DNA from: Planctomycetota bacterium
GTDB lineage: Bacteria; Planctomycetota; JAJSAM01; JAKLKS01
Direction: 5' to 3'
Length of the DNA: 64,000 nucleotides
Assembly: GCA_023150535.1 (NCBI GenBank)
Contig: JAKLKS010000001.1
Span: forward strand, 8,269-72,268
Shown here one piece after another: positions 46,068 through 51,226 of this stretch (positions within the stretch are counted from its first letter, which is position 1; every line of letters starts with the position of its first letter). The translations under genes and the position numbers were made by a program. Under the pieces are notes generated by a model. That model ran no database searches. It was not told where the DNA came from and saw only the letters and a list, made by a program, of their open reading frames with translations.

Positions 46068-47692
46068 GTGAAGACACGCGGACGCTGGGGTCGTCGGTCG
46101 TCCGGTTGGGCTCCACGGTGCTCGTCTTCGGGGCTCTCGGCGCCGTGGGCCTCTGGGGCCACCGCAATGGCTGGAAGGCACCGAAGTTCTCGGAAGCCAT
46201 GGGGAAGGCGCCCGTCGTCGAGGAGAAAGAGGACTGGTGCGAGGCGCACAACGTCCCCGACTCCAAGTGCATCGCCTGCCACCCGGAACTCGCTGGCGGC
46301 AACGCCAAGGACTGGTGCAAGGAGCACGGCGTCCCCGAGTCGAAGTGCACCGCCTGCCACCCCGAGATCCTCGAGAAGGGCAAGGCCGACGACTGGTGCA
46401 AGGAGCACGGACTCCCCGAGTCGCAGTGCACGCTCTGCCACCCGGAGATCGCGGTGAAGGGCGAGGTCCCGAAGGACCCGGCGGCGCCGGCGGTCGTGGC
46501 TGAGCCCGGTGCTCCCGGCGCCAAGGAGCCCTTCACCTGCCAGACGCACCACCTCCGGGTGCAGTTCGCCAGCGCGGAGGCCGTGCGGAAGGCGGGAGTC
46601 GCCCTCGGTCCCGTCGAGGAGCGCCCCATGGCCGCACGCCTCGTCGCCAACGGGGAGACGGACTACGACCAGACCCGCGTCGCGCGGGTCTCGGTGAAGG
46701 CAGCCGGGACCGTCGCGCGGGTCTTCAAGGAGGTCGGGCAGGAGGTCCGGCGGGGCGAGGTCGTCGCGCTCGTGGACGCGGAGGAGGTCGGTAAGGCGAA
46801 GGCGGAGTTCCTCTCGGCCCTGGCCCAGGCGGACGTGAAGGCTCGGGTCCTCGAGCGCATCCAGGCTTCCGCGAAGGAGGGCCTGCGCCCCAAGGCGGAC
46901 CTCCAAGAGGCGGAGGCCGAGGCCCGGGAGGCGCGCATCAGCGTCTTCAACGCCCAGCAGCGGCTCGTGAACCTCGGCCTCCCCGTCCGCGCGGAGGACG
47001 TTTCAGGGCTCGCGGACGACGCGCTCACGGAGCGGATGCGCCTCCTGGGCCTCCCGACCGAGGTCGCGAAGTCCCTGGGAGACAGGGCCGCGACCGCGAA
47101 CCTCCTCCCGGTCACGGCCCCGCTCGACGGCGTCGTCATCGAGAAGGAGACGGTGCCGGGTGAGGTCGTGGAGGCGGCCCGGACCCTCTTCGTCGTAGCC
47201 GACGTCTCCCGCATGTGGGTGCAGCTCGACGTCCGGCAGGAGGACGCCTCCCTCGTCGCAACGGGGCAGGCGGTCTCCTTCCATCCCGACGGGGCCCGAG
47301 ACGGCGCCTTCAAGGGGAAGGTGACCTGGATCGCGACGGCCGCGGACGAGAGGACCCGCACGGTCCGCGTGCGGGCCGAGGTCGAGAACCCCGACCGCGC
47401 CATCCGCGCCCGGACCTTCGGCACGGGACGCATCACCGTCCGCGAGGCCCCGAAGGCTGTGGTCGTTCCCGACGAAGCGGTGCAGTGGGAGGGCTGCTGC
47501 CACGTCGTGTTCGTGCGCCTGAGCGACGAGATCTTCCAGACCCGCAAGGTGCGCGTCGGCGTCCGTTCGGGGGGCTTTACGGAGGTGCTGGGTGGTGTCC
47601 TCCCGGGCGAGGTGGTCGCCACGGCGGGGAGCGCGGTGCTCAAGGCGGACATCCTGAAGAGCAAGCTCGGCGCCGGCTGCGTGGACGACTAG
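46064..47692 (+). CDS. czcB: Membrane fusion protein CzcB paralog with three N-terminal DWCxEHGxPESxCxxCHPE repeats
   Basis: 542 aa; ATGA overlap with czcC2; repeats at aa 57-135 then MFP domains. Confidence 0.85.
   Translation: MSEDTRTLGSSVVRLGSTVLVFGALGAVGLWGHRNGWKAPKFSEAMGKAPVVEEKEDWCEAHNVPDSKCIACHPELAGGNAKDWCKEHGVPESKCTACHPEILEKGKADDWCKEHGLPESQCTLCHPEIAVKGEVPKDPAAPAVVAEPGAPGAKEPFTCQTHHLRVQFASAEAVRKAGVALGPVEERPMAARLVANGETDYDQTRVARVSVKAAGTVARVFKEVGQEVRRGEVVALVDAEEVGKAKAEFLSALAQADVKARVLERIQASAKEGLRPKADLQEAEAEAREARISVFNAQQRLVNLGLPVRAEDVSGLADDALTERMRLLGLPTEVAKSLGDRAATANLLPVTAPLDGVVIEKETVPGEVVEAARTLFVVADVSRMWVQLDVRQEDASLVATGQAVSFHPDGARDGAFKGKVTWIATAADERTRTVRVRAEVENPDRAIRARTFGTGRITVREAPKAVVVPDEAVQWEGCCHVVFVRLSDEIFQTRKVRVGVRSGGFTEVLGGVLPGEVVATAGSAVLKADILKSKLGAGCVDD
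46232..46465 (+). repeat. Three tandem ~78-81-nt coding repeats (GACTGGTGC(A/G)AGGAGCACGG...TGCCACCC)
   Basis: Repeat units start at 46232, 46310, 46391; encode the CxxC/His motif. Confidence 0.7.
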
Positions 47693-47710
47693 GGGACCCC
47701 GGGGACCGCC

Positions 47711-50700
47711 ATGCTCGATCGCGTCATCACCTGGTCGCTGCGCCACCGCTTTCTCGTCGTCGCGGGGGCGGCGGCCTTCGCCGTGGCCGGGGCCGCGGCG
47801 TTTGTACACCTCGAGATCGACGCCTTCCCCGACACGACCCCGGTCCAGGTCCAGATCAACACGGTCGCCCCGGAACTCGCCCCGGAGGAGGTGGAACAGC
47901 AGATCACCTTCCCCGTGGAGCAGGCCATCGGGGGGCTCCCCCGGCTGGAGCAAGTCCGGTCCATCTCGAAGTTCGGCCTCTCCCAGGTCGTCGTCGTCTT
48001 CGAGGACGGGACCGACGTCTACTTCGCCCGCCAGCTCATCGCGGAGCGCCTGAGCACGGTGGAGCTGCCCGAGGGCCTGCCGCGGCCGGAGATGGGCCCC
48101 GTGGCCACGGGCCTGGGCGAGGTCTTTCACTACGTCGTGACGGGGACGGGGAAGGACCTCACGGAGTTGCGGACGATCCAGGACTGGGTCGTGAAGCCAG
48201 GGCTCAGGACCGTTCCCGGGACCGCGGAGATCAACTCCTGGGGCGGTTTCGAGAAGCAGTACCAGGTGCGCCTGGACCCCGCGAAGTTGCTCAAGTACGG
48301 CCTCACGCTGGAGGAGGTGGTGACCGCGGTCCGGGCGAACAACCTCAACGTGGGCGGCGGGAGCCTGTCCGTCGCCGGCACGATGCAGCTCGTCCAGGGT
48401 CAGGGCCGCACGACGGACGCCGCGCAGATCGGCCGCATCGTGCTCGCCTCCCGGGACGGCGTCCCGGTGCGGGTCTCGGACGTGGCCGAGATCGTCGTGG
48501 GCCACGAGATCCGACGGGGCGCGGTGACGGCCGACGGGAAGGGCGAGGCGGTCCTCGGGCTCGGCTTCATGCTCATGGGCGAGAACAGCCACGAGGTCAC
48601 GACGCGCCTCAAGGCCCGACTGGAGGAGGTGAAGAAGGCCCTACCCCCGGGGACCCGGGCGGAGACCGTCTACGACCGCACGGAGCTGGTGGACCACGTG
48701 ATCGACACGGTCCGGAAGAACCTCTTCGAGGGCGGGCTCCTGGTCGTGGCCGTCCTGTTCGCGTTCCTCGGGAACCTGCGGGCGGGGCTCATCGTCGCGG
48801 CGGCGATCCCGTTCTCGATGCTGTTCGCGGCCTCGGGGATGCTGCGGGCGGGGATCGCGGGGAGCCTGCTGAGCCTCGGCGCCATCGACTTCGGCCTCAT
48901 CGTGGACAGCAGCGTCATCATGGTCGAGAACGTCGTGCGACGGCTGGCCCACGGGGGGGCCGGGGACCGGGCGACGACCATCCGGGACGCGGCGCTGGAG
49001 GTCCGGCGCCCGACGATGTTCGGCGAACTCATCATCATGATCGTCTACCTCCCGATCCTCACGCTCGAGGGGGTCGAGGGGAAGATGTTCCGCCCGATGG
49101 CGCTGACGGTGGTGTTCGCGCTGGCGGGCTCGCTCGTCCTCTCGCTGACGCTCATGCCGGTGCTGGCGAGCCTCCTCCTCCCGAAGCGCATCGAGGAGCG
49201 GGAGCCCCTCCTCGTGCGCCTCGCAAGCGCGGTCTATGCGCCCTTCCTCCGCTTCGCCCTCGACAACAAGGCGACCGTCCTCGGGGGCACCCTGGCGGTC
49301 CTCCTCGCGGCGGGCATCGTGGCGCGGGGCCTGGGGTCGGAGTTCGTCCCCCGCCTCGCCGAGGGGGCCATCGTCGTGAACGTCGTCCGCCTTGCCGGGA
49401 CCGACCTCGAGGAGTCGGTCCGCTACAACACGCTCATGGAGCGGGCGTTGCTGGCCACGTTCCCCGACGAGATCGAACACGTCTGGAGCCGCATCGGCAC
49501 GGCCGAGGTCGCCACCGACCCCATGGGCGTGGAGCTGACCGACGTTTTCGTGTCCCTGAAGCCGCGGGCGACCTGGAAGCGCGCGAACACGCAGGCGGAA
49601 CTCGTCACCCTCGTCCAGCGGGAGCTTCGCGACATGCCGGGGCAGCGCATCGCGCTCACGCAGCCCATCGAGATGCGGATCAACGAGATGATCTCCGGGG
49701 TCCGCTCGGACGTGGCCGTGAAGCTCTTCGGAGACGACTTCGAGGTGCTGGCCGCGAAGGGGCGTGAGATCGAGGGCGTGCTCCGGACCGTGTCCGGGTG
49801 CGTCGATGCCTCCACCGAGCAGATCACGGGGCAGCCGGTGCTTCGCGTCAAGGTGGACCAGGACCAGGCGGCCCGCTACGGGATCTCCGCGGAGGAGATC
49901 CTCCGGCTCGTGGAGGCTCTCGGAGGCGTGCCGGCGGGAGAGGTGATCGAGGGGCAGCTCCGGTTCCCGCTGACGGTCCGGCTCCCGGAGTCCTGGCGCA
50001 CGGGGCCCGAGGCGGTCGCCTCGCTGCTCGTCGCGACGACCGAGGGGGAGCGCATCCCGCTCTCCCGGCTCGCGAAGGTCGAGGTCTCGGAGGGGCCCTC
50101 CACGATCACCCGCGAGTGGGGACGCAGGCGCATCACCATCCAGTGCAACGTCCGCGGCCGTGACGTCGGGGGCTTCGTGGCCGAGGCGCAGCGGAAGATC
50201 GCCGAGCGGGTGAAGTTGCCGCCCGGCCGCTACCACCTCGAGTGGGGAGGCCAGTTCGAGAACCTCGAACGGGCCCGCCTGCGGCTGGCGATCATCGTCC
50301 CGGTCGCGCTGGCCCTCGTGTTCGGACTGCTCTACCTCTCTCTGGACTCGGTCCGGCTCGCCCTTCTGGTCTACACAGGGGTCCCCCTCGCGGTGACGGG
50401 CGGCGTCGCGGCGCTCTGGGCGCGCGAGATGCCCTTCTCCATCTCGGCGGCCGTGGGGTTCATCGCGCTCTCCGGGGTGGCGGTGCTGAACGGGCTCGTG
50501 ATGATCACGTTCATCCGGCAGATGCGCCTCCACGGTGCCGGCCTCCGCGAGGCGGTGGAGCAGGGGAGCCTAGTCCGGCTCCGCCCGGTCCTGATGACCG
50601 CCCTGGTGGCGTCGCTGGGTTTCGTCCCGATGGCGCTCGCGACCGGGATGGGCGCCGAGGTGCAGAAACCCCTGGCCACCGTCGTCATCGGGGGGATCGC

Positions 50701-50860: not shown

Positions 50861-50872
50861 GAAGGAGGAGTC

Positions 50873-51226
50873 ATGCGCAGGGCGAACGAACGCAGGGCGT
50901 TCCTGGCGGTTGCGTTGCTGTACGCGGCGAGCGCCTCGGGTTGCGGCGGAGAGGAGAAGCCGGCGGCACCGACGCAGGCACCACCGGCGAAGCCAGAGCC
51001 CGCCTCCCCGAAGGTCCCTCTCGTCGCGCCGCCCAAGGCCGCGGACTGGTGCGGGGAGCACGGGGTGCCGGAGTCCGCGTGCACGCGCTGCAACGCCGAC
51101 CTCGTTCCGGAGTTCAAGAAGAAGGGCGACTGGTGCGACAAGCACGGCCTCCCGGAGTCCCAGTGCGTGACCTGCGACCCCGCCGTCGCCGAGAAGCTCA
51201 AGGCCCTCGCCCCGGCGGGCAAGTAG
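50873..51226 (+). CDS. Periplasmic lipoprotein with two DWCxxHGxPESxC repeats (putative metallochaperone)
   Basis: Signal + lipobox ASASGCGG; DWCGEHGVPESACTRCN and DWCDKHGLPESQCVTCDP. Confidence 0.65.
   Translation: MRRANERRAFLAVALLYAASASGCGGEEKPAAPTQAPPAKPEPASPKVPLVAPPKAADWCGEHGVPESACTRCNADLVPEFKKKGDWCDKHGLPESQCVTCDPAVAEKLKALAPAGK

Follow-up and report, generated by a model that had tools for sequence, protein, structure and literature searches.

A Repeated Cys3His Unit Shared by a Metal-Pump Adaptor and a Small Lipoprotein of Planctomycetota, a Candidate Periplasmic Metal-Capture Module

Introduction

A stretch of 64,000 nucleotides from a Planctomycetota bacterium (contig JAKLKS010000001.1 of assembly GCA_023150535.1, positions 8,269 to 72,268; the whole of it is referred to here as the window) holds a gene cluster, czc2, for a resistance-nodulation-division (RND) metal efflux system, of which two products, the periplasmic adaptor CzcB2 and a small lipoprotein, share a repeated unit of 26–28 amino acids built around the pattern C-x2-H-x6-C-x2-C. 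Judged from its conservation in hundreds of distinct copies, this unit is a real and widespread family, and it is tied to one clade of CusA/CzcA-type RND pumps. The reading we favor, with somewhat better than even confidence, is that the units are periplasmic Cys3His knuckles for metal capture and like-to-like hand-off toward the pump. Among heavy-metal RND pumps, Cus is to our knowledge the one system whose periplasmic substrate acquisition has been worked out in detail, through CusF and the CusB N-terminus; for Czc/Zne-type pumps this step is largely open. With a compact, sequence-definable module that occurs in about 960 representative proteins, marks one pump clade and is located where a carrier and an acceptor would sit, the acquisition step of non-Cus metal RND pumps becomes testable using small soluble domains. 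Hundreds of 'hypothetical' lipoproteins and unannotated adaptor N-termini can now be given the domain annotation that they lacked, and the module raises the chemical question of how thiolate sites stay functional in the periplasm. Conceptually the finding is not unprecedented, yet it is well defined and abundant.

Results and Discussion

Repeat Unit and Its Two Carriers

The motif D-W-C-x-[EK]-H-G-[VL]-P-E-S-x-C-x-x-C is present in five copies within the window. A six-frame regular-expression scan for C-x2-H-x6-C-x2-C returned exactly five matches, all of them in the open reading frames (ORFs) 46064..47692 and 50873..51226, against 0.01 ± 0.1 matches per window by chance, as estimated from 200 simulated windows (first-order Markov, 72% G+C). 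Tandem Repeats Finder reports a single array at 46232-46466 (period 81, 2.9 copies, 77% matches, score 263). With unit boundaries counted from the Asp of DWC, the units and their carriers are as follows.

46064..47692, + strand: czcB2, periplasmic adaptor (membrane fusion protein), 542 aa; HlyD_D23, TIGR01730
46097..46162, + strand: CzcB2 N-terminal membrane anchor, VVRLGSTVLVFGALGAVGLWGH; helix in the AlphaFold2 model
46232..46309, + strand: CzcB2 unit 1, DWCEAHNVPDSKCIACHPELAGGNAK, 78 nt, 26 aa
46310..46390, + strand: CzcB2 unit 2, DWCKEHGVPESKCTACHPEILEKGKAD, 81 nt, 27 aa
46391..46471, + strand: CzcB2 unit 3, DWCKEHGLPESQCTLCHPEIAVKGEVP, 81 nt, 27 aa
50873..51226, + strand: small lipoprotein, 117 aa; signal peptide and lipobox, tether, two Cys3His units
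51044..51127, + strand: lipoprotein unit 1, DWCGEHGVPESACTRCNADLVPEFKKKG
51128..51208, + strand: lipoprotein unit 2, DWCDKHGLPESQCVTCDPAVAEKLKAL

A first-pass annotation of this stretch, made from the DNA letters, had described three tandem 26–27-aa repeats encoded by 78–81 nt in CzcB2 and two further copies in a small lipoprotein downstream of czcA2; the coordinates and Tandem Repeats Finder bear out the former, and the six-frame scan the latter. The starts of the two lipoprotein units are 28 aa apart. The consensus C(H/N/D)P given there is accurate within the window, the residue after CxxC being His in all three CzcB2 units and Asn and Asp in the lipoprotein units, while across the 723 units described below this His/Asn/Asp is no conserved ligand and the defining set is Cys-His-Cys-Cys.

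CzcB2 is, by its sequence, an RND periplasmic adaptor of the CzcB/CusB type, on which the family models and the neighboring outer-membrane-factor and RND genes agree. Pfam assigns it to HlyD_D23 (3.3e-43, 147.9 bits, cut-off 30) and HlyD_3 (3.6e-18, 66.7 bits), and it scores 134.5 bits on TIGR01730 (cut-off 94.9); on the narrower CzcB/NccB model TIGR00999 it reaches 140 bits, under the 319-bit cut-off. The protein is laid out as membrane anchor, three Cys3His units, Pro/Ala linker and adaptor core, and AlphaFold2 predicts an N-terminal helix at residues 7-34 at a predicted local distance difference test (pLDDT) score of 90-95, with the units following this helix. The membrane anchor, taken together with the established adaptor architecture (PMC4446572), places the CzcB2 units on the periplasmic side. 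An identical protein deposited from Planctomycetota metagenome-assembled genomes (MAGs) is named 'efflux RND transporter periplasmic adaptor subunit'. CzcB1, the paralogous adaptor in the window (likely gene start 38570), is without Cys units. A His/Glu/Gly-rich low-complexity stretch of CzcB1, GGHKEQAGEAGHEGHAGEAGHEGEEEGGDH at 38669-38767, occupies the place of the CzcB2 units.

The small lipoprotein consists of a signal peptide, a lipobox ASG/C (Cys24), a Pro/Ala-rich tether of about 33 aa and the two Cys3His units; a lipobox by the pattern [LVI][ASTVI][GAS]C was scored in ORF 50873..51226 (...AASASG/C, residues 21-24). Its ATG lies 12 nt past the czcA2 stop and is preceded at 5 nt by a ribosome-binding site, AAGGAGGAG. 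Here too an identical protein has been deposited from Planctomycetota MAGs, as 'hypothetical protein'. The signal peptide (50873-50944) contains a twin-arginine-like RRAFL; twin-arginine export was considered and rejected, RRAFL being treated as chance, as homologous lipoproteins are without this motif.

Family Size, Spread and Conservation

A word-indexed protein search with the three-unit region as query yielded 92 proteins, nearly all of which are two-unit lipoproteins of 100-148 aa or N-terminal adaptor fragments. No valid Pfam domain is found in any of the 92, and their source names are 'hypothetical' or 'membrane fusion protein'. A lipobox-like motif lies within the first 45 residues of 55 of the 92 homologues, many of the others being fragments, and some lipoprotein homologues have an added His-rich tail. 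A profile built from 58 of these proteins and run against 1.84 billion representative proteins matched 960 at E≤1e-3 and 604 at E≤1e-10, with lengths of 64-847 aa and 1-8 units each. When ten long matches were scanned against Pfam, eight proved to be HlyD_D23 adaptors and two had no Pfam domain. In one adaptor, P0235 (576 aa), four units stand C-terminal to the core. P0093 (359 aa, 8 units) and P0098 (340 aa, 6 units) have no recognizable adaptor core or Pfam domain and could represent either long carriers that stand alone or gene calls cut short. At least 591 stretches encoding the unit were found by scanning one genome per species. Among the matches listed, most are from Planctomycetota/Phycisphaerae and Myxococcota, including the cultured Sorangium cellulosum So ce56 and Polyangium, with scattered MAGs of Eisenbacteria, Gemmatimonadales, Bdellovibrionales and Zixibacteria.

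A hidden Markov model of the unit, built from 50 diverse units and applied without the regular-expression filter, collected 723 distinct units. As can be seen from the counts below, which take aligned residues only, the four candidate ligand residues are more than 98% conserved across this set.

Position 4: Cys, 679/681
Position 7: His, 706/707
Position 14: Cys, 710/718
Position 17: Cys, 711/713

Further strong conservation is seen at Asp2, Trp3, Glu6 (or Gly), Pro10, Glu11, Ser12, Pro19 and Leu21, and none of the conserved positions is a Met. CxxC is followed by Asn in 391 units (54%), by His in 153 (21%) and by Asp in 68. Each unit has exactly three Cys residues, and proteins with one unit and with three units occur; this odd number per unit, in combination with such proteins, makes a purely disulfide-bonded design unlikely.

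Linkage to One Clade of Metal Pumps

Genomic context was surveyed at 80 loci of species-representative genomes using tblastn with the window proteins and an ORF-level motif map. Of the 80 loci, 73 have a gene for a CzcA2-like RND protein (49-77% identity) at a distance of no more than 6 kb and in the same orientation, and the seven remaining loci are largely short or at contig ends. Motif ORFs other than an adaptor or a small protein are rare. Units are found on the adaptor, on a separate lipoprotein, or on the two together: lipoprotein, adaptor with units and RND gene follow each other at 28 loci, an adaptor with 2-6 units precedes the RND gene at 21, and the arrangement of the window (adaptor with units, RND gene, lipoprotein), usually with an outer-membrane-factor gene, is seen at 19. 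The adaptors at the 80 loci have 1-6 units. Loci looked at one by one agree with this picture, and in one of them the genes for lipoprotein and adaptor share 4 nt. One lipoprotein subgroup (P0087, L005:10001-10438) has two motif units, a third degenerate Cys-rich element and a His-rich tail, and is encoded beside an adaptor with at least five units.

The pump of the window is encoded directly after the adaptor.

47711..50860, + strand: czcA2, CusA/CzcA-family RND transporter, 1049 aa; TIGR00914 1240 bits, ACR_tran 6.6e-280

Its best match in the PDB is ZneA (695 bits vs 624 for CusA). The clade to which it belongs has the signature E137 H140 D603 M605 E608 D611 E654 M655 E659 M660 (CzcA2 numbering), which an alignment shows to be 92-100% conserved in 65 orthologous pumps; by contrast, in 14 neighboring paralogous RND proteins and CzcA1 (40409-43633) residue 655 is Leu or His, residue 660 is Leu, Ile or Val, and residue 140 is mostly Gln or Leu. 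H140, M655 and M660 are conserved to this extent only in pumps with unit-bearing adaptors. The Cu(I)-binding Met triad of CusA consists of M573, M623 and M672 (PMC8092243). A triad of this type is absent from CzcA2, in which the aligned residues are Asn, Leu and Glu. Residues 603, 611, 655 and 659 of CzcA2 align with ZneA 602, 610, 654 and 658, which make up the proximal zinc site of that pump, and transmembrane helix 4 has the pattern DFG...D...EN, of the divalent-cation type. The mixed carboxylate/Met/His cleft of the pump clade points to borderline or thiophilic divalent ions, and the substrates of CzcA2 are accordingly most likely of this kind (Zn, Cd, possibly Pb or Co), as far as its residues tell. 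The first-pass proposal of a candidate soft-metal module remains plausible as regards the metal, given four near-invariant ligand residues and the linkage to this pump clade; the qualifier 'soft' holds less well for a pump that is nearer to ZneA, has no CusA Met triad and presents a mixed cleft.

Predicted Fold

AlphaFold2 modeling of the two-unit domain of the lipoprotein with the 58-sequence alignment gives pLDDT 90-96 over residues 60-115. In the model, each unit is a two-stranded hairpin (W-C ... V/L-P) with the His in the turn, followed by a one-turn PES element, the CxxC and an α-helix, which begins directly after the Asn or Asp that follows CxxC. Asn, Asp and Ser are classic helix-capping residues, and the variable residue after CxxC would thereby be explained without a ligand role. 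The CzcB2 units are predicted in a like pattern at pLDDT 72-85, and the linkers around the well-predicted units are of low confidence.

Comparison with Known Domains and Systems

No described equivalent of the unit was found in Pfam (2025 copy), NCBIfam (2026), PDB sequences, Foldseek or the literature searched on Cys-rich adaptor and lipoprotein modules. That the unit is no described metal-binding domain and is distinct from HMA, CusF and CusB-type Met sites, as the first-pass annotation had it, agrees with the outcome that Pfam and NCBIfam give no above-threshold match; nor was there in Pfam a significant match to any well-characterized domain with a non-metal function, the finding by which that annotation had proposed its reading be judged. 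Assignments of the repeat region, the lipoprotein and 58 homologues to Pfam or NCBIfam families were rejected, as these are scattered sub-threshold matches (Ish1, DUF5363, DUF5879, B-box, cytochrome c7). PDB searches with two-unit and single-unit profiles gave nothing significant, the best being THAP (E 0.25) and Geobacter cytochromes (E 0.13). The S-x-C-x-x-C-[NH]-P-x-L half of the unit resembles a c7-type haem segment of Geobacter, SDCGKCHPGLKPAK (PDB 3oue, 3ov0; E 0.13-0.3, non-significant).

Adaptors of heavy-metal efflux (HME) RND systems can bear additional metal-chaperoning domains at the N- or C-terminus, and such domains are also known as separate proteins (PMC4446572). In CusCBAF, metal transfer steps between the components have been probed by experiment (PMC6235853). 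CusF and the C-terminal domain of SilB are, like the present unit, a small periplasmic metal domain that is either stand-alone in the operon or fused to the adaptor, and that is confined to heavy-metal RND systems (PMC4446572). CusF, however, is a five-stranded β-barrel of about 80 aa with Met, His and Trp ligands, whereas the unit described here has 26–28 aa and a Cys3His set, occurs in 1-8 copies, mostly at the N-terminus, and has a lipid anchor where it belongs to a separate protein. Neither the window proteins nor the 58 family members have a Pfam match of the CusF type or to a CusB Met site. The N-terminal site of CusB (Met21/Met36/Met38) and the His-rich N-terminus of CzcB resemble the units in being metal elements between membrane anchor and core, but they are short, largely disordered and Met- or His-rich, whereas the units are discrete, confidently predicted folds with invariant Cys and His.

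HMBD (PF19335), a short Cys/His motif of CusB-type adaptors and metal ATPases, is alike in size, in tandem occurrence and in its N-terminal position in metal-pump adaptors, and its ligand order is C-x2-H ... C-x2-C, as in the unit. No match to the 28-position HMBD profile was found at E<=1 for the three window sequences or at E<=0.01 for the 58 family members. When the unit profile was aligned by hhalign with one weak HMBD-like sequence (L018, the sole sub-threshold comparator), the CxxC alone was aligned, over 10 columns at a probability of 20%. By these comparisons, the last of them against this one weak sequence, a relationship to HMBD is without support, and the spacing and all non-ligand residues differ; a distant homology is still conceivable. 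The Atx1/CopZ carriers and the HMA domains of P1B-ATPases offer a further likeness, namely a free carrier made from a module that is repeated on the transporter N-terminus, with exchange from like to like. HMA is nonetheless cytoplasmic, with a 70-aa ferredoxin-like fold and a two-Cys MxCxxC site, as opposed to a predicted hairpin-helix of 26–28 aa, and HMA (PF00403) gives no match at E<=1 to the window proteins. With treble-clef and zinc-knuckle fingers the unit may, by its predicted secondary structure, have in common a first candidate ligand pair on a β-hairpin knuckle and a second pair at the helix start, in a Cys3His set; its periplasmic location is unusual for zinc fingers, and no significant sequence or Foldseek match to solved zinc fingers was found. 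An Fe-S cluster was set aside because a Sec-type anchor or a lipoprotein signal precedes the units, whose export would then take place in the unfolded state. By analogy, the role may be of a known kind, that of an HME-RND adaptor accessory metal domain with a free periplasmic counterpart; the module as such, absent from the libraries searched, is an undescribed domain family marking an uncharacterized pump clade.

Proposed Role and Alternatives

We hold it probable that the units bind metal, and each 26–28-residue unit would then be a small, independently folding knuckle in which Cys-x2-His-x6-Cys-x2-Cys binds one metal ion. Because they follow a Sec-type anchor or a lipoprotein signal, the units would be exported unfolded and acquire their fold on the periplasmic side, with access to free metal ions. 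Three units would be held at the inner membrane by the CzcB2 N-terminus and two would be carried on the lipid-anchored, flexibly tethered lipoprotein, together forming the metal-capturing front end of one CusA/CzcA-type RND clade. We infer a direction in which metal in the periplasm is first taken up by the lipoprotein and then transferred, through ligand exchange, to the adaptor's own units of this kind, which would deliver it to the carboxylate/Met/His cleft of CzcA2 for export, or would signal the presence of metal. Capture and hand-off are favored by the shared module on carrier and adaptor, the variable copy number, the occasional C-terminal placement, the substitution for a His-rich stretch and the restriction to one pump clade; the cleft residues that co-vary with the units and the metalloregulator, cation-diffusion-facilitator and YHS genes around the operon count for them as well. 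Such a design would match the logic of CusF to CusB to CusA and of the SilB C-terminal domain, (PMC4446572, PMC6235853), as well as that of the cytoplasmic Atx1/HMA pair. The first-pass suggestion of a novel capture or hand-off device gains from the unit being both fused to an adaptor and present on a separate lipoprotein, as are CusF and SilB; what does not follow from this is its choice of hand-off over buffering, sensing or a structural zinc site. A bolder version, in which the units constitute a metallochaperone family of the periplasm that is new and has a mini-fold of its own, leading from a lipid-anchored two-unit carrier via the adaptor units to a distinct pump clade with a Met/His/carboxylate entry, we regard as less likely than not. 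If true, it would amount to a cysteine-thiolate relay outside the cytoplasm, a periplasmic counterpart of the Atx1-HMA system, and would give the substrate-acquisition route of an uncharacterized HME-RND class common in Planctomycetota and Myxococcota.

Several points weigh against capture and hand-off. The step from metal binding to transfer is its weakest link, as most of these data would agree equally with a structural zinc site or with buffering or sensing. Cys3His sites usually bind zinc very tightly, which suits structural over transfer sites, and the CxxC pair could be a disulfide in the oxidizing periplasm. The substrate identity is ambiguous, as the CzcA2 cleft mixes oxygen, sulfur and nitrogen donors. 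Foldseek returned no structural analogue, and 'treble-clef-like' describes a predicted secondary structure. Were the units structural zinc knuckles, each would hold one permanent zinc for its folding, the beads would serve as spacers or mediate contacts between proteins (such as lipoprotein with adaptor, or adaptor with pump), and the bound metal would not be transported. The invariant Cys3His set with a hairpin plus helix is typical of structural zinc fingers, to which weak sub-threshold matches (B-box, DNA polymerase epsilon zinc finger, THAP) and the frequent occurrence of units in fixed pairs 28 aa apart can be added. Yet a copy number of 1-8 and a placement that is N-terminal, C-terminal or in trans fit a scaling of capacity or avidity better than an interface, the units are restricted to metal pumps and stand at the place of the CzcB1 His-rich stretch, and a His-rich tail accompanies them in some homologues, so that we hold this explanation to be unlikely while granting it an appreciable chance. 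A periplasmic buffer or sensor departs from capture and hand-off in the last step only: toxic metal would be bound and not passed on, either by a membrane-tethered sponge or with metal-induced folding of the adaptor switching the pump on. Variable unit numbers, flexible Pro/Ala tethers and low-confidence linkers around well-predicted units are what one would expect of it, but stoichiometric sequestration by a few sites per protein protects little, and the units are strictly coupled to the pump in operons whose genes often overlap or nearly abut, which suggests a functional partnership; to this alternative we assign a small probability.

Two other functions of the CxxC pair are much less probable. 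By the one, the CzcB2 N-terminus would be a small multihaem domain with c-type haem attachment, like a trihaem c7-type cytochrome with about 26 residues per haem. In CzcB2 each of the three units combines CxxCH with another His, His dominates after CxxC in window-type adaptors (HHH in 8, NHH in 5), and any CxxCH that reaches the periplasm is in principle open to the maturation systems there. Sub-threshold matches to Cytochrome_C7 and c3 were also obtained (E 0.004-0.03; 17.4 and 15.1 bits vs cut-offs of 24.8 and 25), and in the PDB the unit profile comes closest to Geobacter multihaem cytochromes, at a non-significant E of 0.13-0.3. An invariant CxxCH is nevertheless not what the family has: Asn is the commonest residue after CxxC (391/723 vs 153 for His), and its share of 54% vs 21% argues that haem attachment is not the family function. 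Lipoproteins without any CxxCH are common, with NN in 23 of 28 type-B small proteins, and unit 1 of orthologous adaptors varies between His and Asn. The first Cys, about 99% conserved, has no role in haem binding, and the position after CxxC precedes a helix in the AlphaFold2 model, where Asn, Asp or Ser caps are typical. Haem as the family function is untenable in view of the Asn dominance, the CxxCH-free lipoproteins, the His/Asn switching and the extra invariant Cys; adventitious or subfamily-specific attachment to CzcB2 itself we consider very improbable. By the other, the CxxC would cycle between dithiol and disulfide in a redox module that reduces metal species or shields the pump from oxidation. 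A CxxC at a predicted helix N-terminus is thioredoxin-type geometry too, but the additional invariant Cys and His, the tiny unit and the absence of a thioredoxin-fold signal in Pfam speak against it, as does the absence of a DsbD/CcdA-type reductant partner among the called genes of the few loci examined, and its chances appear slight.

Operon and Neighborhood

The czc2 genes are accompanied by an outer-membrane factor and by two regulators.

43679..44128, + strand: ArsR/SmtB-family metalloregulator upstream of czcC2; HTH_5 6.6e-12, NF033788 77.6 bits (cut-off 55)
44625..46067, + strand: czcC2, outer-membrane factor; Pfam OEP 7.1e-34
51247..51681, + strand: second ArsR/SmtB-family metalloregulator, directly downstream of the lipoprotein; HTH_5 5.7e-13, NF033788 75.3 bits

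The gene czcC2 likely begins with the Met at 44625, after which comes a lipoprotein-type signal (the ORF as called mechanically runs from 44166); its stop overlaps the czcB2 start, and czcA2 begins 18 nt past czcB2. A scan for promoters and terminators over 43.5-53.5 kb found nothing. The ArsR/SmtB gene at 43679..44128 is the probable regulator of the czc2 cluster. Both ArsR/SmtB paralogues have ELCVCDL in the DNA-binding region and GVCEVD near the N-terminus, which suggests that they sense a thiophilic metal through thiolates. A cation-diffusion-facilitator gene (51591-52358), short and with a weak score, overlaps the end of the second ArsR gene and is followed by a gene for a 120-aa YHS-domain protein with an N-terminal hydrophobic segment (52407-52769). 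This gene order (lipoprotein, ArsR, cation-diffusion facilitator, YHS) recurs in other assemblies with an identical lipoprotein (L087-L089). Upstream of the czc2 operon lie a second czcCBA set and an integrase, the latter being a phage-integrase-family gene (35133-36554) located just upstream of both czc clusters, the regulators and the cation-diffusion-facilitator and YHS genes. The block from the integrase through the YHS gene may be an integrated metal-resistance island, the two pumps of which would, from the N-termini of their adaptors, represent two different candidate solutions to metal binding.

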